A stretch of DNA of 64,000 bases, from positions 83,523 through 147,522 of the forward strand of contig CAZPLT010000001.1 in the NCBI GenBank assembly GCA_964587855.1, read 5' to 3'. Positions 1,935 through 31,333 of this stretch are shown in pieces. Each line of letters begins with the position of its first letter. Within the stretch, counting starts at the first letter, position 1. The notes below the pieces were generated by a model. It did not search any database. It was given only the letters and a program-made list of their open reading frames with translations, and was not told where the DNA came from. The stretch is from an uncultured Muribaculaceae bacterium. Its GTDB lineage: Bacteria > Pseudomonadota > Alphaproteobacteria > Rs-D84. A program made the position numbers and the translations under genes.

Positions 1935-3146
1935 ATGAAAACAATATCTGATAAAACTTCATTGGCTATACTGAAATGGTCCGAGGCATGTATTTATTTT
2001 ATGCCAATTATTCCAGTCATAGTTTTATTATACCAGGGCAAAAATGTTTCCGTTGGGGATTTCTTTTTAATCCAAGGAATATTTCGCCTGGTATCTTTCT
2101 TGTTTGAAATTCCATCAGGCTATTTGGCCGATGTGTTTTCACGCAAAAAGATATTATTAATTGGGGCAGCGGTTCAATTTTTATCAATGCTTTGGCTGAT
2201 TTGGGCGGATGGTTTTTTTGGTGTCATGTTGTGCGAGGCAGGCCTTGGTTTGGCTGCTGCACTGTTTTCCGGTACAGGGGAAGCATACACATTTGATTTA
2301 TTAAAACGTATGAATAAAGAAAATCAATACTTAAAGGAAAATGGGAGTATTCGTACTTTTGCTCAAACATCTACATTTATTGCGACATTGATAGGTGGAG
2401 TGGTTTTTGCGTTTAGTGTTGATTTATTGCTGGCAATAGAAGCAATGGCGGCATTTGTCGGACTTTTATTGATCGCGCGTTTGCCAGAATTGCACGAAGT
2501 TCGTCGTAAAATCGCACCTGAAACCAGTCCTTTGCGTGATTTGATAGGTATTACAAAAATGTCTATAAAACATCCTGAAATTAAATGGTTGATGACATTC
2601 CCTGCGATTTATGGAGGATTTACCTTAATTATGTTTTGGGTTTTGCAGCCGATGATGACGGCAGCAATGGTTCCCGTTGCTTTGTTTGGTTTGTTTGTTG
2701 GTATAAACCAAGGAAGCCGAGCGATATTTTCAAAAATAGCGCATAAAGCAAAAGAATTACTGGGGGTCAGAAACCTTTTGTTCTTATGCCTGGGGCTTTT
2801 GGCAGCGGGATTCATCGCTGCAATACTTGCTGTGCATGCGGCAGGCAATATAGCTTTGGTTTATGCTCTCAGTGGATTTGTTGCGATAATTCCAGCAACT
2901 CAAACGATGGCGGCGTTGATTTTTAAAGATTATATTCATAATAAGATAAAATCTGATGAACGTGGAACAATATTATCTATTAACTCTATGTTCAGTACAG
3001 GTATAACAGGAATAATGATGATTTTGGTAAAACCTATGTTGGATAATCTTGGCATTGTTACGACATTGCTTGTTTGCCTTGGGGCATTGATTATGATACT
3101 ATTTCCATTAAAGAAAGTCTTGGCAATAAAAGGGATAAAAAAATGA
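1935..3146 (+). CDS. MFS-type transporter (12-TM membrane protein)
   Basis: Multiple hydrophobic helices. MFS motif-A-like GYLADVFSRKKILLIG. Confidence 0.55.
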   Translation: MKTISDKTSLAILKWSEACIYFMPIIPVIVLLYQGKNVSVGDFFLIQGIFRLVSFLFEIPSGYLADVFSRKKILLIGAAVQFLSMLWLIWADGFFGVMLCEAGLGLAAALFSGTGEAYTFDLLKRMNKENQYLKENGSIRTFAQTSTFIATLIGGVVFAFSVDLLLAIEAMAAFVGLLLIARLPELHEVRRKIAPETSPLRDLIGITKMSIKHPEIKWLMTFPAIYGGFTLIMFWVLQPMMTAAMVPVALFGLFVGINQGSRAIFSKIAHKAKELLGVRNLLFLCLGLLAAGFIAAILAVHAAGNIALVYALSGFVAIIPATQTMAALIFKDYIHNKIKSDERGTILSINSMFSTGITGIMMILVKPMLDNLGIVTTLLVCLGALIMILFPLKKVLAIKGIKK

Positions 3147-4357
3147 CACAGAAATTATTTGATATGTTGCAAGAGCGTGGGTTCGTCAAAGATATGACCC
3201 ACCCACAACAGATAAAAGATTTATTGAATGGCAATAAAAAAATAACTTTTTATGTTGGGATTGATCCAACGGCAGATTCTTTGCATATTGGGCATTTTTT
3301 CGCTCTGCGTATGGCGCGGCATTTGCAAAATGCAGGACACCAAGCAATCGTTTTAATTGGTGGCGCAACAGCGCTGGTTGGTGATCCAACTGGAAAATCT
3401 GATATGCGTAAAATGCTGACCAAAGAGCAAGTCGCACATAATATGGCCGAAGTGGAAACATTGGCGCGGCGTTTTGTTTTACCAGAAACCAAGTTTGTAA
3501 ATAATGCAGATTGGATAAATAAATTTTCTTATGTGGATTTTATGCGTTTGGTTGGCACTCATTTCAATGTTAATACAATGTTGGCGTCCGAGGCCTATGC
3601 CCGCCGTCGTGAAAATGGTGGTCTGACATTTTTGGAAATGGGATATATGCCGATGCAGGCGTATGACTTTGTTCATCTGAATGATGCGGAAAATTGTGTT
3701 CTACAGATTGGCGGCAGTGATCAATGGGGAAATATCGTTGCAGGCACGGAATTATTCAGAAAGAAAAATATTGCCGAAGGTAAAGACGCGGGCGAAATAT
3801 ACGGCCTGACCGCGCCACTTCTTATGACAGTTGATGGTAAAAAAATGGGTAAAACTGAAAAGGGAACATTGTGGGTTGCCCGTGATAAAACCACCCCGTT
3901 TGAGTTTTATCAATATTTTTACAATATGCCGGACGAAAATACAGGCTTGCTGTTGTCTTTATTTACAGATATACCAATGTCGGAAATAGTTGCAATGTGC
4001 ACGAACGACATTGTTGCATCCAAGAAAAAAATGGCATACGAAGTTACTAAATTGATTCATGGTGAAATGTTGGCGGTTGATGCTGCCGCAACGGCCAAGT
4101 CTTTATTTTGTGGTGGCGCAGAAAGCACCGGAATTCCAAGTAAAAAAATGGCAATGTCTGGGGCTGTGAACATCGTTGATTTTTTGGTTCAATCTGACAT
4201 TGTTCCATCTAAATCCGAAGCGCGCCGGGCAATAGAGCAGGGCGGGATTCAGCTGGATGGAGTCAAAATTATTGATAAAGATTTTATGGTCCCCCCCGCA
4301 GAATCAATAATGATTCAGAAAGGCAAAAAGACTTTCTTGAAAATAGTAACTAAATGA
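3143..4357 (+). CDS. tyrS: Tyrosyl-tRNA synthetase
   Basis: HIGH motif (DSLHIGHF), KMGKT (KMSKS-like), C-terminal S4-like domain. Start taken at MTQKLF. 4-bp overlap (atga) with upstream gene. Confidence 0.9.
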   Translation: MTQKLFDMLQERGFVKDMTHPQQIKDLLNGNKKITFYVGIDPTADSLHIGHFFALRMARHLQNAGHQAIVLIGGATALVGDPTGKSDMRKMLTKEQVAHNMAEVETLARRFVLPETKFVNNADWINKFSYVDFMRLVGTHFNVNTMLASEAYARRRENGGLTFLEMGYMPMQAYDFVHLNDAENCVLQIGGSDQWGNIVAGTELFRKKNIAEGKDAGEIYGLTAPLLMTVDGKKMGKTEKGTLWVARDKTTPFEFYQYFYNMPDENTGLLLSLFTDIPMSEIVAMCTNDIVASKKKMAYEVTKLIHGEMLAVDAAATAKSLFCGGAESTGIPSKKMAMSGAVNIVDFLVQSDIVPSKSEARRAIEQGGIQLDGVKIIDKDFMVPPAESIMIQKGKKTFLKIVTK

Positions 4358-5430
4358 AAAAGTACCTTTATTTTTTAACTTTTGTTTTTTTTATCTTAGG
4401 TTCTGCTTATGCGGCGCCGAATGAATTGGCTGCGGTAAAAAAACAAATTACCCAGGTTGAACAGCAAAATAAAAAGATAGAACAACAGGTTAAAACGTCG
4501 GATCGCCAAGTTGAGAAAACAAAAAATCAATTGGTTGGTGCTGCAGAAAGTCTGGATAAAATTGAAAATCAACGCGGTGAAATCCAAGATAAAATTAAAA
4601 GTTTAGATGCACGTCGAGATGTCTTGATGGCATCGATTGTTACGAACCAGGGACGTTTGGCCGAAGCCGCGGCAGGATTGGTAACTATTTCTGAAAATCC
4701 TTCATTTTCTGCATCTGATACCCATGAATATATTTTGACATCGGCTTTGTTAACAGGCGTTTCTGATGGGTTTGATTCTGAAATAAAATCGGCGGGGGAA
4801 AAAATCGCCGAACTGGAAAAAGTTATGAACGCCAGAAAAGAACAACAAAAAAATCTTGATAAAACAGCAAAGAAATATGCCGAAAATAAAGATTATTTGG
4901 ATAAGTTGATGAGAACACGTTCCGCACAAAATGAAAAATTAAAATCCAAGCAATATGAATTACAAAAAAAATTACGTGATTTATCTGTTCGCGCAAAAAG
5001 CTTGTCTGAATTGACAGCTGGATTATCGCGGGCCGAGGTTTCATCCGATGATTCATTCAGTTGGCGTAAAATGCGGGCACCTGTATCTGGGATTATGTTG
5101 CGCAGATTCGGCGAAACATCCCCATTGGGTTTGGTATCTGATGGTTGGCTGATAAAGACGCGCAGTGGTGCGTTGGTGACGGCGCCTGCCGATGGTCGTG
5201 TTGAATTTGCAGATGATTTCCGTAAAAATGGTCGAGTGGTAATACTTTCACATAAAAATTCATATTATTCGGTTTTGACCGGACTTGCAACGACAGATGT
5301 TTTGCTGGGCCAAGATGTTTTGGCGGGCGAGCCAATTGGCCGTATGCCCGAAGATCGCGCTGAAATGTATCTGGAACTGCGCCGCGGAACAAAAGCAGTT
5401 GACCCTGCAAAATTATTCAAAGAACCATAG
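4354..5430 (+). CDS. M23 family peptidase / murein hydrolase activator (EnvC-like) with coiled-coil N-terminus
   Basis: Signal peptide, long coiled-coil region. C-terminal LytM/M23 domain (RRFGETSPLG...PADGRVEF...). Confidence 0.75.
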   Translation: MKKYLYFLTFVFFILGSAYAAPNELAAVKKQITQVEQQNKKIEQQVKTSDRQVEKTKNQLVGAAESLDKIENQRGEIQDKIKSLDARRDVLMASIVTNQGRLAEAAAGLVTISENPSFSASDTHEYILTSALLTGVSDGFDSEIKSAGEKIAELEKVMNARKEQQKNLDKTAKKYAENKDYLDKLMRTRSAQNEKLKSKQYELQKKLRDLSVRAKSLSELTAGLSRAEVSSDDSFSWRKMRAPVSGIMLRRFGETSPLGLVSDGWLIKTRSGALVTAPADGRVEFADDFRKNGRVVILSHKNSYYSVLTGLATTDVLLGQDVLAGEPIGRMPEDRAEMYLELRRGTKAVDPAKLFKEP

Positions 5431-5463
5431 TTTTTTTTGTAAAATTAGACAAATATTTAATAC

Positions 5464-5491
5464 TTGACAAATATACAAATCATACTATACT
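5464..5491 (+). promoter_or_regulatory. sigma70-like promoter (TTGACA-16-TATACT) immediately upstream of ATG at 5498
   Basis: -35 TTGACA 5464-5469, -10 TATACT 5486-5491. ATG only ~6 nt after the -10, implying a leaderless transcript. Confidence 0.45.
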
Positions 5492-5497
5492 TATTGT

Positions 5498-6418
5498 ATG
5501 AAAATTAGGAAATTACAAAATCATGGTCGCGAGACTTACGCTGTTTATTACGGCGATGGGTTTGTTTTAAAACGTCCTTTGCCAAATTTTGGAGAAGAAG
5601 CACAAGAAAAATGGCTTGCTAAACAACATAAGACTAAGCAGGTTATTGATGAAATTTATGCCGTAGGGAACCCGACTTACAATATTCCAAGAATGGTTTA
5701 TATTAATGATGATGAGTATCAAGTTCTCGAAGAACGTGCCTTGGGTGGGCCTTTAACGAAAGAATTATATAGAACCTTGACCCGTCGTCAACAGTTGGAA
5801 ATTGTAAACGGGTTGTCAAGTTTTTTGGTGGATATGAATGAATTAAAGCCAACAAAAGAAATTGTAAATCATAAGATAACATCAGAAATAAAATTTTCTA
5901 GATTTGAAAACTTTGTAGAAAATAAAATGTCAGATTGGTTTGCGGTAAATGATGTTAAATATATGATAAAAGTTAAAAATCAAATAAGTCAATTTGAATA
6001 TAAAACTATGGAAGCATGGTCTCATGGGGATTTAAATGCGGGGAATGTGCTTTATAATAAAGATACCAGCAAATTATCTTTTATAGATTTTGCAGAAGCA
6101 AGTTATAAATTTATTTATCGGGATATTTTTGCTTCTTTACAAATAGAACTTGATATTTGTAAACCGGTTTATGAAATTTATAAAAAGTTTCATGTTCAAA
6201 GAAAATATAAAATGCCCGGTATAGGTTCTTCTGAATTACAGGATATAATGAAAAATCGAATAACTATAGTATGGCTAAAGCGTTTTATTAAGGCTTCGGA
6301 TGACTTACGGCAAAATACAGAAACAGAAAAAGGGGAAAAAAATAACACAGAGAAAGTAAAATTCATGTGTGAAACTATACATAATTTAAAAAACTTAGAT
6401 AGAAAGTTTTCTAGATAA
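5498..6418 (+). CDS. Kinase-fold protein of APH/choline-kinase/Kdo-kinase type
   Basis: Catalytic-loop-like HGDLNAGNVLY, metal-binding IDFAEAS (D-F/W-x motif), N-terminal FVLKRP lysine. Own promoter and terminator. Confidence 0.45.
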   Translation: MKIRKLQNHGRETYAVYYGDGFVLKRPLPNFGEEAQEKWLAKQHKTKQVIDEIYAVGNPTYNIPRMVYINDDEYQVLEERALGGPLTKELYRTLTRRQQLEIVNGLSSFLVDMNELKPTKEIVNHKITSEIKFSRFENFVENKMSDWFAVNDVKYMIKVKNQISQFEYKTMEAWSHGDLNAGNVLYNKDTSKLSFIDFAEASYKFIYRDIFASLQIELDICKPVYEIYKKFHVQRKYKMPGIGSSELQDIMKNRITIVWLKRFIKASDDLRQNTETEKGEKNNTEKVKFMCETIHNLKNLDRKFSR

Positions 6419-6450
6419 ATCCCCTCTTGCGTGGGGGATTTTTTTTTGCT
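6419..6450 (+). terminator. Rho-independent terminator
   Basis: atcccc-tcttgcg-tgggggat followed by T9. Confidence 0.7.
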
Positions 6451-6479
6451 AAATTTTGTTAATTGTAAAGGGGGTTTTT

Positions 6480-7790
6480 ATGAAAAAGATTTTAATTTCG
6501 ATTTTATTATCATTTGTGGTTGTTTTTAGTGCGACAGCGGCAGAAAAGAAAGCACCTGTAAAACATCTGACAGATGCCCAAATTTATGAACAATTGAAAA
6601 AATTTGCATTGGTATTTGAAACAGCACGTGAAAATTTCGTAGAAGAAGTTGATGAAAAGAAAATGCTGGAAGCAGCTATGAACGGAATGTTGATGGAATT
6701 GGATCCTCATTCTTCGTATTTGAATGCTGATGACTTGAAAGATTTTGACGATAAATCTTCGGGCAGTTTTGGTGGCGTCGGTATTCAAATTACATCGGAC
6801 AAGGGCGCAATCAAGGTTATTTCCCCAATTGATGACACCCCAGCTTATCGTGCTGGGATAAAGGCTGGCGATTATATAACTCATATTGATGGGCAACAAG
6901 TTTTTGATATGTCTTTGAATCAAGCCGTTAAAAAAATGAAGGGGCGTCCAGGGACCAAGATAAAATTAACAATTGTTCCCGAAGAACGTGGCGAGCCAAA
7001 AACAATTACCCTTACTCGCGATATAATCAAAGTTAAATCAATAAAATTTGCTGCCAAGGGGGATGATAAAAAAATTGGATATATTCGTGTTTCTGATTTT
7101 GGCGCAACTACAGCCAAAGAATTAAAAGAAGCCATAGAAAAATTAGAAAAACAGAAAGTTATAGGCTATGTGTTGGACGTTCGTAATAATCCAGGTGGAT
7201 ATTTGATTGCGGCCATTGAAGTTTCTGATGCTTTCTTGGATAGTGGTGAAATAGTTTCAACCCGTGGTCGTGGCAAAGAAGATATTGATCGCAGTATGGC
7301 AAAGCCTGGTGATTTAACACATGGAAAACCAGTTGTTGTTTTGATAAACCATGGATCTGCATCAGCATCAGAAATTGTTGCAGGCGCGCTTCAGGATAAT
7401 AAACGTGGATTGGTTATGGGCAGTCAATCATTTGGTAAGGGTAGCGTTCAACAACAAAAACCTTTTGGCGATGGCACAGCAATTCACTTGACCATTGCGC
7501 GGTATTACACCCCATCTGGTAAATCAATCCAGGGCGAAGGAATTACTCCGGACGTAGAAGTATTGCAATCCAAAGTAGAAGTTTTGGAAAAGAAAAACGA
7601 TATCTTTTCCGAGGCCAGCTTTAAAAATGCTTTGAAAAATGAAAAAGCTAAAAAGCAAGATGCAAAAGATGATGAAGAAGATGATGATTCTAAATTAACA
7701 GATGCTGAAAAAGATGCCCGCGATTATCAATTGCAACGTGCAATGGATATGGTTCGTGCAATGTCTAAATTAAAGCCTGTGAAAAAATAA
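6480..7790 (+). CDS. ctpA: Carboxy-terminal processing protease (S41, PDZ-containing)
   Basis: Signal peptide, PDZ region, S41 core (GGYL..., SASASEI). Start at MKKILIS. Confidence 0.85.
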   Translation: MKKILISILLSFVVVFSATAAEKKAPVKHLTDAQIYEQLKKFALVFETARENFVEEVDEKKMLEAAMNGMLMELDPHSSYLNADDLKDFDDKSSGSFGGVGIQITSDKGAIKVISPIDDTPAYRAGIKAGDYITHIDGQQVFDMSLNQAVKKMKGRPGTKIKLTIVPEERGEPKTITLTRDIIKVKSIKFAAKGDDKKIGYIRVSDFGATTAKELKEAIEKLEKQKVIGYVLDVRNNPGGYLIAAIEVSDAFLDSGEIVSTRGRGKEDIDRSMAKPGDLTHGKPVVVLINHGSASASEIVAGALQDNKRGLVMGSQSFGKGSVQQQKPFGDGTAIHLTIARYYTPSGKSIQGEGITPDVEVLQSKVEVLEKKNDIFSEASFKNALKNEKAKKQDAKDDEEDDDSKLTDAEKDARDYQLQRAMDMVRAMSKLKPVKK

Positions 7791-7805
7791 TTATAAAAAA
7801 TTAAA

Positions 7806-7838
7806 TAAAAAAGCGGTAATTGACCGCTTTTTTTATTG
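7806..7838 (+). terminator. Rho-independent terminator after ctpA
   Basis: aagcggt-aatt-gaccgctt followed by T-run. Confidence 0.7.
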
Positions 7839-7917
7839 TCAATATATGGTTCAATGCTTGTTTTACGTCTTCCAAAATACTATAATTCATATCCGTGACC
7901 AAAAAAAGGAAGTAGTT

Positions 7918-10900
7918 ATGACCAAGATGATAGTTGATGGTAATTGGGCCGCAGCAGATGTGGCATATCGATGTAGTGAATTTTCAGCAATATATCCAAT
8001 AACACCCAGCAGCACCATGGGTGAGTTGGCAGATGAATGGGCGTATCAGCATAAAAAGAATATTTGGGGCGCAGTGCCCGGAATAATTGAAATGCAGTCT
8101 GAGGGTGGCGCAGCCGGCGCAGTTCATGGCGCGTTGCAGATGGGCGCATTGGCGACGACTTTTACCGCGTCCCAGGGTTTGCTGTTGATGATTCCAAATA
8201 TGTATAAAATTGCAGGGGAACAAACACCATTTGTTATGCATGTTGCGGCGCGTGCTTTGGCGACACATGCTTTGTCTATATTTGGTGATCATTCTGACGT
8301 TATGTCAGTTCGTGGAACTGGTTTTGCATTATTATCTTCGCATAATGTTCAGCAAGCCCATGATATGGCTGCAATAGCACATAGCGCAACACTTCGCGCG
8401 CGCGTTCCGTTTTTACACTTTTTTGATGGTTTTCGTACCAGCCATGAAGAATCCAGAATTGAATATATTCCAGATGAAGTTTTACAGGAATTAATTCCAA
8501 CAGATTTAATGTTAGATGCGCGCAATCGCGGTATGACTCCGGATGCGCCAACGATTCGCGGAACCGCGCAAAACCCAGATGTATTTTTCCAAGGGCGCGA
8601 GGCCGCAAACAAATTCTATGATGCGGTTCCAGAAATTGTTCAAAATGTTATGAATAAATTTGGAAAATTGACGGGACGTAAATATGGCTTGGTTGAATAT
8701 ACTGGTGACAAAAAAGCCGAAAATGTAATTGTTGTAATGGGCAGCGCGGCAGAAACAATAACTGAAACTTTGCCACATTTGCCAAAGGGCGTTGGAATGA
8801 TAGCGGTGCATTTGTATCGTCCATTTCCGACAGATGCATTTTTAAAAGTTTTGCCAGACAGTGTTAAAAATATTGCCGTATTGGACAGGACAAAAGAGCC
8901 CGGTTCAATCGGTGAACCATTGTACCAAGATGTTGTAACCGTATTGCAAAATCGTGGTATAAAAATCTTTGGTGGGCGTTATGGTTTGGGTTCCAAAGAG
9001 TTCAAACCCCGTGATGTCCAGGCTGTGGTTGAAAATTTAATCAATGGAAAACTTCATCATAATTTTACTGTTGGTATTACAGATGATGTTACGAAATTGT
9101 CGCTGAAAACGGATCCAAAGTTTGCAAATGATGTTGCTGGAAAATCAGCAATACTTTACGGAATCGGATCTGACGGAACAGTTGGCGCGGTTAAGAATAT
9201 AGTTAAAATAGTTGGGGATAATTCTGATTTGTATCCGCAATCTTATGCAGTTTATGATTCCAAAAAGTCAGGGGGACTTACTGCTTCGCATTTGCGATTC
9301 GCACCAAAGCCAATACAATCACAATACTTGGTGGAATATGCGGATTTTATTTCTGTTTCTAATTTTACCATTGCACAAAGATTTGATGTTTTTAGTGGGT
9401 TGAAACCTGGTGGAATTGTGATGATAAACACAGGGCATAATCCAGACGAAGCTTTTGCAATGTTGCCACGTGATGTCCAAGAACATTTGATTAAACAAAA
9501 AGCCAAAGTATATTTCTTGGATGCGAATCGCGCAGCGCGTGAATTGGGACTAGGGAACAGAATAAATACTTTTATAATGTTGAACTTTTTCAATTTAACC
9601 AAAGTAATAAATCCATCTATCGCGGCAAAATCTGCAAAAGATGCGATTGAAAAAACTTATCATAAAAAAGGTGAGGATGTTGTTGCTGCAAACTGGGCAG
9701 CGGTTGATAAAGCGGCAGAGTTTTTGCATGAATATACTTTGCCAGCACAGCCATCAAAATCAGCACCGGATTGGATCCCTGCGATGACGGCTAATGCGCC
9801 AGCATGTATTATGAATACTTTGGGTGAAATGGCCGCAATGTGTGGTGATGATTTACCTGTATCTGCAATGGCAAATTCAGGGGAATTCCCAGTTGGAACT
9901 TCGAAATATGAAAAACGTGGAATCAGTGAAAATGTTGTTGTGTGTGATTTAAGTAAATGTATTCAATGTGGAAAATGTTCAATGTTGTGTCCGCATGCTG
10001 CGATTCGTATGAATGCGGGTAAAAATATTGGTGGTGTTCCAATGAAGACATCTGAACTGGGTGAAGATATGGAATTTTTACTGACAATTTCACCAGCAGA
10101 TTGCACAGGATGCCAGGTTTGTGTAAAAAATTGTCCGGTTGGCGCATTAAGTGTTGTTCCAATTGAACAAGCACAAAAATTGGGCGCCCAAGAAGCATTT
10201 GATAAAGCAGCAAAATTGCCTCCAGTGCCAAAGGATAAATTAAATACTAATTTACCAAAGCATATAGAACTGTCTGAACATATGTTTGAATTCCCAGGCG
10301 CATGTGCGGGTTGTGGTGAAACACCTTATATAAAATTAGTAACACAATTATTTGGTGATCATATGGTTGTTGCAAATGCAACTGGGTGTTCATCAATTTA
10401 TGGTGCGAATTTGCCAACTACTCCGTATACATCAGATTCGAATGGTCGCGGACCTGCATGGTCTAATTCATTATTCGAAGATAATGCAGAATATGGATTG
10501 GGAATGCGTATGGCATTAAATCAACGTCGCGAAATGTTAAAGGGTTTATTATTCAAAGTCTTTGATGATAAAGATGATAAGATTATTGAATCTTTATTTG
10601 ATGAAAAAGATATCGTAAAGCAGCGCGAAAATGTTGAATTGGTTCGTAAAAAAGCCAAAGGCGATAAACAAATCGAATCGCTGCTGGATGCGCTTGTTGA
10701 TAAATCTGTATGGATAATCGGTGGTGACGGATGGGCTTATGACATTGGATACGGTGGTTTGGACCATGTCCTGCATAGCGGTCAAAATGTTAATGTCTTG
10801 GTTATGGATACCGAGGGTTATTCAAATACTGGTGGTCAACAATCCAAAGCAACACCTTTTGGTGCTTCGATGAAATTTGCCGTCAGTGGTAAAGAAATAG

Positions 10901-29993: not shown

Positions 29994-30058
29994 TTACTGA
30001 ATTTTTTAGCTATTTTTACTTTGACACTTGTTTTATCTGATAGTATGATAATTTCACT

Positions 30059-31333
30059 ATGTTAAACTGGATAGCCAGACAATATTCTTCCCTAGCATCT
30101 CTTTTGACCGCGCCTTTTCGTGCAGTGTGGCGCGTGATATGCAGATTGTTTCCAGAACGGGATATAACAATTATTTCTGGTGGGGATTTAATTTCTTATC
30201 GTCAAACATCGTTTTGGCGGATTGCGCGTGGCTTGGGCAAGATTATTTTGATTATCTGGGCAATATGGGCAACTTATGTATTTGTTTATCATCGTCCATT
30301 GTTACAAAAACGTACTCGGCAATTGGAAGAGGCTCGTGCACAGCATGTTCAATATATGTCTGATCTGAATTCTTTTTATGCGAAATATTCTGCATTACAT
30401 GAAGAAATGAACGATATAGATGATCAGTTGATAAATAGTAAAAATATGAAAAAAGCCGCGCAAGAGGCATTGTTAAAACGTCGTGTGAATACTTGGGCCC
30501 AGATTGAAATGTTGGGAACACGTATAAAAAATATGATGACTGACAGCAATTATACTCCAGAAATCAAGAATTTATCTGAACTTTCTGTAGAATACGAACT
30601 TACACGTGAAGAAAACCGTCAATTATTTGAATCTAATCAAGAAATGGAAAAATCCATAGTTATCATCAGTGACGCAACAAATCAAATTTATGATCGTGTA
30701 TCAAAATTAACCAAAGAAAATTTAACCCAAATTAATAAAAATATGTCAAAGCTTCAAGGTTCTTTGGCCAATTTGGGACTGAATACACGTACGTTGTCGC
30801 AAAAAGCCTTAGCTGTAAATAACAGTATTGTCGGGGGTGCAATTTCCCCAATGGATTTAGATAAAGATATAGATCCAAAATACAAAGAATTAGCAGACAA
30901 GATAGAATTATGGCAAGGATTATCACGTGCAGCGGCTATACTGCCAATGGGCGCACCTGTAAAAAATGCAGTCATAACTTCAAAATATGGGGATCGTGTA
31001 CATCCATTAGATGGCGTAATTAAACCACATAGCGGATTAGATTTTGTTGGAACCGTAGGTACGCCTTTATACGCGGTTGCTCCAGGCAAAGTCGTTTTTG
31101 TTGGTGATAAAACTGGATATGGCAAGGTTGTAGAAATTGATCATGGAATGGGCTTTACTACTTTATATGCACATTTATCAAAATTTCGTATTCAACGTGG
31201 CGATACGGTACATGCCAAAGATATAGTTGGATTGGCTGGAAATTCTGGTCGTACAACGGGGCCTCATTTACATTATGAAGTCAGATACAATGATCGTCCA
31301 TTTAATCCGTACAGCTTTGTAAAGGGGAAATAA
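30059..31333 (+). CDS. Membrane-anchored M23 peptidase (coiled-coil plus LytM domain)
   Basis: TM near N-terminus, coiled coil. C-terminal HSGLDF...GYGKVVEIDHGMGFTTLYAHL...GPHLHYE (HxxxD and HxH zinc motifs). Confidence 0.8.
   Translation: MLNWIARQYSSLASLLTAPFRAVWRVICRLFPERDITIISGGDLISYRQTSFWRIARGLGKIILIIWAIWATYVFVYHRPLLQKRTRQLEEARAQHVQYMSDLNSFYAKYSALHEEMNDIDDQLINSKNMKKAAQEALLKRRVNTWAQIEMLGTRIKNMMTDSNYTPEIKNLSELSVEYELTREENRQLFESNQEMEKSIVIISDATNQIYDRVSKLTKENLTQINKNMSKLQGSLANLGLNTRTLSQKALAVNNSIVGGAISPMDLDKDIDPKYKELADKIELWQGLSRAAAILPMGAPVKNAVITSKYGDRVHPLDGVIKPHSGLDFVGTVGTPLYAVAPGKVVFVGDKTGYGKVVEIDHGMGFTTLYAHLSKFRIQRGDTVHAKDIVGLAGNSGRTTGPHLHYEVRYNDRPFNPYSFVKGK

Follow-up and report, generated by a model that had tools for sequence, protein, structure and literature searches.

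A clade-restricted APH-fold phosphotransferase with a probably leaderless mRNA at a conserved envC-ctpA slot in gut Alphaproteobacteria of the order Rs-D84

The antibiotic kinases APH(2'') (-IIIa, -IVa and -Ia) and Mph are the closest solved folds to the protein described here, which is encoded in a 64-kb stretch of DNA (the window) from an uncultured alphaproteobacterium of the order Rs-D84. Its gene (5498..6418, + strand) is the lone open reading frame (ORF) between genes for an EnvC-like protein and the protease CtpA. The 306-aa kinase is 12-16% identical to these antibiotic kinases. It is basic (isoelectric point, pI, about 9) rather than acidic, and its gene is chromosomal, fixed in position and clade-wide rather than mobile. 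Its N-terminal loop reads HGRET and is not Gly-rich, and in most genomes the gene is paired with one for a Fic-like protein. Choline and ethanolamine kinases (PF01633; LicA) belong to the same superfamily. The kinase matches their profile below threshold, whereas a paralogue found in the same slot of some relatives (APH2) exceeds it. Fic/Doc modules (FicT/FicA, VbhT/VbhA, Doc/Phd) resemble the locus of most relatives in that the gene for a Fic-fold protein shares a transcript with that for a second protein. They differ in that the Rs-D84 partner is a 306-aa downstream kinase and not a small upstream antitoxin, that the Fic-like protein lacks the catalytic His, and that the window contains no Fic-like gene. 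Leaderless bacterial genes are also described, including lambda cI and many Caulobacter, actinobacterial and Deinococcus genes. The kinase gene is like them in having a -10 element 6-7 nt from its AUG and no Shine-Dalgarno (SD) sequence, but its transcription start is placed by promoter geometry, and possible read-through from envC could add a leadered transcript.

We conclude with confidence that the gene encodes a predicted active APH-fold phosphotransferase of a clade-restricted family, that it has its own promoter and terminator, and that it has long been resident at this locus. The explanation we favour for the locus as a whole, and consider likely, is a cytoplasmic O-phosphotransferase of the APH fold that depends on nucleoside triphosphates, belongs to an Rs-D84 family held in a conserved slot, is expressed without a leader and acts on a small molecule or peptide. 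The kinase is an uncharacterised member of a known superfamily, and the annotation of metagenome-assembled genomes (MAGs) already calls its relatives, generically, phosphotransferase.

The kinase fold proposed in the initial annotation was borne out by profile searches. Pfam APH (PF01636) matched residues 12-214 with 31.7 bits against a gathering threshold of 23.2, and was the sole family over its curated threshold. Matches below threshold were obtained for Choline_kinase (PF01633; 24.8 against 29, residues 148-220), TCAD9 (27.2 against 40), OspG_kinase (PF22303; 20.7 against 27, residues 175-202 only), Kdo/WaaP (PF06293; 13 against 21.3, E = 0.068, over the catalytic loop), EcKL and ABC1. Most of these span the catalytic loop only. 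The other profiles named in that annotation (CHK, Kdo/WaaP and RIO) gave no over-threshold match, and neither a RIO nor a Kdo/WaaP kinase was the closest fold. No NCBIfam model came near its cutoff, the best resistance equivalog being NF033068 APH_3p (16.2 bits against 205), and PADLOC returned no match to the kinase at E <= 1.

The kinase retains the catalytic residues of the fold. We aligned 26 diverse homologues (mean column identity 73%) and found K25, H176, D178, N183 and D197 to be invariant. The segments HGDLNAGNVLY (residues 176-186) and IDFAEAS (residues 196-202), which had first drawn attention to the ORF, hold the catalytic loop H176-G-D178-LNAG-N183 and the metal-binding I-D197-F, respectively. 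The equivalents of the catalytic Asp, the Asn and the DFG motif are therefore all present, as D178, N183 and D197. K25 is the beta3 Lys, lies in the motif VLKRP and falls on strand 22-27 of the structural model. Further invariant motifs, HGRE (9-12), FLVDMNE (109-115) and RFIK (262-265), are specific to the family. An AlphaFold2 model of the kinase (mean predicted local distance difference test, pLDDT, 90.9; predicted template modelling score 0.86) has a bilobal fold with a full C-terminal helical subdomain. Foldseek and a family-profile search of Protein Data Bank (PDB) sequences agreed on APH(2'') and Mph as the closest matches. A single-sequence search of PDB sequences returned nothing significant, and APH(2'')-Ia was reached by the family profile only. 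These results indicate that the protein is a complete APH kinase of the small-molecule type, and neither a minimal protein kinase nor a lipopolysaccharide (LPS) kinase.

Charge and domain architecture bear on the likely substrate. The pI of the kinase is 9.12, and that of its C-terminal substrate subdomain is 9.55; values across the family range from 7.1 to 9.4 and are mostly about 9. Genuine aminoglycoside kinases are strongly acidic, so the basic character of this protein argues against a polycationic substrate. From this charge, the proximity of the fold to APH(2'') and Mph and the complete helical subdomain we infer, at lower confidence, that the kinase acts on a small molecule or peptide that is neutral or anionic, and not on a polycationic aminoglycoside. 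The kinase has no hydrophobic N-terminal stretch that would suggest a signal peptide, and we place it, also at lower confidence, in the cytoplasm. In the proposed reaction K25 would hold the nucleotide phosphates, N183 and D197 would bind Mg2+, and D178 would act as the base in phosphorylation of a hydroxyl group. The likeliest role would be the salvage or activation of an imported compound by a host that is unable to make most metabolites.

The promoter described in the initial annotation was confirmed. The -35 hexamer TTGACA (5464..5469, + strand) and the -10 hexamer TATACT (5486..5491, + strand) are separated by a 16-nt spacer and match the sigma-70 consensus at 11 of 12 positions. The -35 hexamer sits in an extended form, cTTGACAAAt, that is kept across species. 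The -10 ends 6 nt before the ATG. With an in-frame TGA at 5465-5467 and no alternative start codon before residue 66, ATG 5498 is the only start that retains the invariant N-terminal HGRET motif. The geometry of the -10 predicts that transcription begins at the A of this ATG (5498 +/-1 nt, + strand). No purine-rich SD was found in the 30 nt before the kinase start; ctpA has AAGGGGG and PFOR has AAGGAAG. The GC hairpin reported after the stop codon belongs to an intrinsic terminator (6417..6449, + strand), in which AAATCCCC/GGGGATTT enclose a 7-nt loop and are followed by a T9 run. The hairpin (6417-6441) has a folding energy of -11.8 kcal/mol, and the terminator is kept in L001, the closest relative.

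The same promoter recurs throughout the order. An element of the form cTTGACAAAt-16/17-TATAxT precedes the cassette in nearly every locus that we read. In operons that begin with the Fic-like gene, 25-30 nt usually separate the promoter from the ATG of this gene, and the interval contains a GAGG-like SD. A few Fic-like genes are themselves leaderless in geometry. For kinase genes that stand alone, the distance from the -10 to an ATG is 7 nt (L001, L007, L010, L042, L051, L056, L058, L059, L064, L070 and L084). The same 6-7 nt geometry is seen in L093 and before the APH2 gene of L095, bringing the total to 13 other species loci. These loci fall in at least five separate groups of a neighbour-joining tree of the kinase, and one of them, L010, is nested among species that have the Fic-like operon. 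Between these lineages the sequence of the spacer varies and the geometry stays constant.

The kinase gene has the features expected of a leaderless gene: a -10 within 5-9 nt of the start (here 6), an AUG start codon and no SD. The repetition of the 6-7 nt geometry on at least five branches adds comparative support, short of proof. We conclude that the kinase mRNA is probably leaderless, as the initial annotation had proposed from the position of the -10. RNA polymerase would start at the A of the AUG (5498 +/-1 nt), the mRNA would have no 5' untranslated region, and translation would need the 5'-terminal AUG.

We next consider the distribution of the family. A search of 5.8 billion proteins returned 458 homologues, and every named one comes from a MAG of gut Alphaproteobacteria. 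Among 1.84 billion representatives of clusters at 50% identity, 118 matched at E <= 1e-3 and 15 at E <= 1e-30. Cluster look-ups of the distant homologues gave no informative names. A relative is encoded by at least 139 GTDB species genomes (order Rs-D84, Ca. Enterousia). Our survey of loci drew on the best 80 of 139 GTDB relatives, and a tblastn survey took in 85 loci. The best 80 genomes carry titles such as Ca. Enterousia and 'uncultured Rickettsiales' UMGS bins, and come from the guts of humans, chickens, horses and ruminants. No relative of the kinase was found among IMG/VR viral contigs or PLSDB plasmids. Enterousia belongs to the order Rs-D84; its genomes are smaller than 1 Mbp, and those of Rs-D84 are about 1 Mb or smaller (PMC12306168). 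Rs-D84 genomes lack amino acid, nucleotide and lipid biosynthesis and have no respiratory chain, and these bacteria are thought to be partner-dependent (PMC12306168).

Nearly all of the 80 loci that we read place the relative at the junction of envC and ctpA, where it usually comes second in a Fic-like + kinase operon. The dominant order in the tblastn survey is PFOR<- CtpA<- | Fic-like-> kinase-> | <-EnvC <-TyrS, with the cassette on the strand opposite to its flanks. Where the two genes form an operon, at most about 30 nt separate the Fic-like stop codon from the kinase ATG, and sometimes the two are directly adjacent. Several variants depart from this order. The kinase alone is inverted in L017, L042, L051, L058, L064, L070 and L081, where it reads the same way as envC and ctpA, and it and the Fic-like gene converge. 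A relative with 45% identity is arranged EnvC<- kinase-> <-Fic. The Fic-like gene is absent in the window, L007, L010, L056/L059 and L084. In other loci an ORF of 263 aa (L001:5097-5888) or 349 aa (the L038 type; L038:5909-6958) takes the position of the Fic-like gene ahead of the kinase; neither ORF has a Pfam, NCBIfam or PADLOC match, and neither resembles the Fic-like protein. These surveys show that in this clade a Fic-like + kinase cassette has a fixed place at the envC/ctpA junction, under one conserved, near-consensus sigma-70 promoter.

In the window the order is TyrS, EnvC, kinase, CtpA and PFOR, all on the + strand and without a Fic-like gene. A tblastn search of the 64-kb window found no remnant of the Fic-like gene (best E = 0.046) and no second kinase paralogue. 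Set against its relatives, this arrangement is a derived state of an order-wide locus, in a lineage that has lost the Fic-like gene. The initial annotation had described the kinase as an insertion between envC and ctpA. Since relatives occupy the same slot across the order, the window kinase is no fresh insertion. The kinase evolves under strong constraint, with a ratio of non-synonymous to synonymous substitution rates (dN/dS) of 0.09-0.13 between the window and its two closest relatives, all of which lack the Fic-like gene; values for EnvC, TyrS and CtpA are 0.05-0.08. A dN/dS of about 0.1 in a lineage that has no Fic-like gene indicates that the kinase is functional without this partner.

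The slot also holds a second type of kinase. APH2 (290-300 aa, about 30% identical to the first type) passes the Pfam Choline_kinase threshold. It occurs alone in L091 (L091:2141-3013) and L095 (L095:2758-3660), and in tandem with the first type in L093 (L093:5001-5900). Tandem duplication followed by differential loss explains its presence without a functional tie to envC or ctpA. The history of the slot would thus comprise an ancestral insertion, then local inversions, tandem duplication and differential loss. The place of the kinase beside envC and ctpA is best explained by this history and is not evidence of a cell-wall role.

The usual partner of the kinase is a protein of about 240 aa, for which L008:6271-6996 provides an example and about 65 other loci have an equivalent. 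Its closest solved relative, by both sequence and fold, is human FICD/HYPE (profile E = 1.3e-19; Foldseek TM 0.72-0.75; AlphaFold2 pLDDT 90.1). The family comprises 220 homologues and is confined to the same clade of gut Alphaproteobacteria. The canonical Fic motif is HPFx[D/E]GN[G/K]R (PMC2686095). The Fic-like proteins instead carry QPFxDFNKRTAR, with Gln for the catalytic His and a Doc-like Lys for the second Gly. The Q, F, D, N, K and both R residues of this motif are invariant in 65 of 65 distinct sequences, which suggests changed chemistry and not decay. We did not find a known pairing of Fic and APH proteins in the literature.

This pairing invites two explanations in which the proteins act together. 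The kinase and the Fic-like protein might form an undescribed two-enzyme modification system that is core to the reduced-genome, partner-dependent Rs-D84. In such a phospho-relay the kinase would make or remove the substrate of a non-canonical Fic transferase that acts on an envelope, division or partner-cell target. We hold this to be unlikely. A little more doubtful still is the idea that the locus is the remnant of a conflict module of the toxin-antitoxin kind, in which the Fic-like protein would be a toxin or modifier, the kinase a type VII-like antitoxin or co-effector, and the window copy an orphan partner. Kinase antitoxins exist elsewhere (TakA/TglT). The tight coupling of the two genes in most species fits such a module, as do weak PADLOC matches of the Fic-like protein to PDC-S04 and SoFic, the lower GC of both genes relative to their flanks, and the frequency of rearrangement, loss and replacement in the slot. 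Yet the kinase is better conserved than its supposed toxin (about 60% against about 45% identity) and outlives repeated loss of the Fic-like gene with a dN/dS of about 0.1. It also lacks a PADLOC match and relatives on plasmids or phages, it keeps to one chromosomal slot in genomes of about 1 Mb, and the Fic-like catalytic His is missing in all 65 sequences.

Among explanations that concern the kinase alone, the one with most weight makes it a salvage enzyme for a head group or amino sugar (a LicA-type choline or ethanolamine kinase, or a NahK/AmgK-like anomeric kinase for N-acetylhexosamine or N-acetylmuramic acid) that feeds envelope biosynthesis. This would explain the neighbourhood of envC and ctpA, which as set out above is better attributed to the history of the slot, and we regard so specific a role as possible but improbable. 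An antibiotic-modifying resistance enzyme, similar to aminoglycoside 2''- or macrolide 2'-phosphotransferases, is suggested by the nearest solved structures and PDB sequences, but the low identity to them, the distant APH_3p score (16 bits against 205) and the basic pI speak against it. The gene is also clade-wide, fixed in position and absent from the plasmids and phages searched. Aminoglycoside uptake depends on respiration, so in a host that does not respire an aminoglycoside kinase would have no selective value. We therefore consider resistance very unlikely. No more probable is the effector role that the initial annotation had raised, in which the protein kinase would be secreted or translocated and would act on a host or partner cell. 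The catalytic loop does resemble OspG (20.7 bits in Pfam; E = 0.02 with the PDB profile), partner dependence is presumed for the host clade, and the Fic domain is common among effectors, with Bep, IbpA and VbhT among the matches of the Fic-like protein. However, the matches to OspG and to PrkT/SrkA are sub-threshold and cover the catalytic loop only, and a complete helical subdomain at the C-terminus is what small-molecule kinases typically have. The N-terminus shows no hydrophobic signal, no secretion-system genes were seen nearby at the loci read, and conservation is at a housekeeping level, without the diversification usual for effectors. The same annotation offered an LPS inner-core or Kdo kinase (KdkA/WaaP-like) as an alternative. 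The weak Kdo match over the catalytic loop and the presence of LPS-related genes in the host (PagL and AsmA in L090) point that way, but with a score well under threshold and a different closest fold this proposal is unsupported and the least probable of all. The resistance, effector and Kdo/WaaP readings each failed at least one of the tests made. Ranked by weight, head-group or amino-sugar salvage comes before the Fic-based module, followed by resistance, effector and Kdo/WaaP kinase.

Several observations weigh against the small-molecule phosphotransferase that we favour. No characterised homologue exceeds about 16% identity to the kinase. We saw no invariant alpha-C Glu in helix 33-55; this is atypical for the fold and also sets the kinase apart from APH(2'') and Mph. 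The invariant residues of this helix are W39, L40, K42, Q43, H44 and T46. APH2 replaces the kinase in some relatives, so the kinase may not be essential in the strict sense. Recurrent pairing with a Fic-like protein of invariant motif suggests a joint function that a simple salvage kinase does not explain. Composition is also unusual: the kinase gene has 30.6% GC against 37.4% for the whole window, kinase genes lie about 4 GC points below ctpA in 72 of 79 loci, and the Fic-like gene does so in 64 of 64. These values are compatible with an ancient foreign or accessory origin of the cassette. With respect to expression, one 11/12 promoter match by itself carries no significance in DNA so rich in AT: 8 such sites occur in the window against 4.0 +/- 1.9 in shuffled sequences. 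The significance of the promoter comes from its conservation across species. In its extended form the kinase promoter is the only TTGACAAA..TANNNT site in the 64-kb window. Between the stop codon of envC and the kinase promoter no terminator was found, so read-through from envC may also produce leadered transcripts alongside the leaderless one.

The genes on either side have recognisable functions, as the initial annotation had recorded. Upstream lies the gene for an EnvC-like protein (4354..5430, + strand) with a coiled coil and an M23 (LytM) domain (Pfam Peptidase_M23, 7.4e-15); its best NCBIfam model is EnvC, with a score under the cutoff. It is the last gene of an mfs-tyrS-envC run (1935-5430) in which adjacent genes share 4 nt (ATGA at 3143/3146 and 4354/4357); these overlaps suggest translational coupling within an operon. 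Downstream, ctpA (6480..7790, + strand; SD AAGGGGG) encodes a carboxy-terminal processing protease with PDZ and S41 domains and a signal-peptide-like N-terminus. The window TyrS (3143-4357) is 96% identical to that of L007, while the kinase is 75% and EnvC 82% identical. It is about 40% identical to TyrS of most Rs-D84 loci and about 75% identical to that of three others (L073, L083 and L085). These values suggest two tyrS types and recombination or replacement at the locus.

We also noted further sequence features of the window. A 16-nt direct repeat, TTTTTTTTGTAAAATT / TTTTTTTTGCTAAATT, at 5431-5446 and 6440-6455 brackets the promoter-gene-terminator unit. We considered a target-site duplication and rejected it, because the repeat is rich in T runs, is not kept in relatives and is probably due to chance. 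The TTGACAAA -35 was likewise rejected as a general promoter form of the genome, given its one occurrence in the 64-kb window. Inside the kinase gene an antisense, promoter-like TTGACG-16-TATAAT (5791-5764, - strand; 11/12) may be chance in AT-rich DNA. Good -35/-10 pairs end 9 nt before ATG 30059 of an M23 peptidase (30021-30061, + strand) and 7 nt before ATG 17772 of an RsmD-like methyltransferase (17808-17770, - strand), and more of the genes in this genome may have leaderless starts. An Rfam scan of 4300-8000 found nothing above the gathering score. A match to Rickettsia sRNA47 inside ctpA, on its antisense strand (7332-7461, - strand; E = 5e-6), stayed below threshold with 33 bits where the gathering score is 60, and is probably due to conservation of the coding sequence.

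For the window itself the main upshot is a correction: the kinase is an ordinary member of its superfamily and no fresh insertion, and an effector or LPS role is unsupported. For the order, genomes of about 1 Mb with few spare genes still hold this kinase under strong purifying selection and behind a well-conserved promoter. The locus amounts to a natural, repeated experiment in leaderless expression, in which loss or inversion of the Fic-like gene leaves the promoter 6-7 nt from the AUG of the kinase. The Fic-like partner is the more interesting biochemical target of the two. If the two proteins do form one modification system, the window would stand for a lineage in which the kinase functions without its other half. 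Knowledge of the kinase substrate would bring to light a metabolite or protein that these uncultured symbionts of the gut require.

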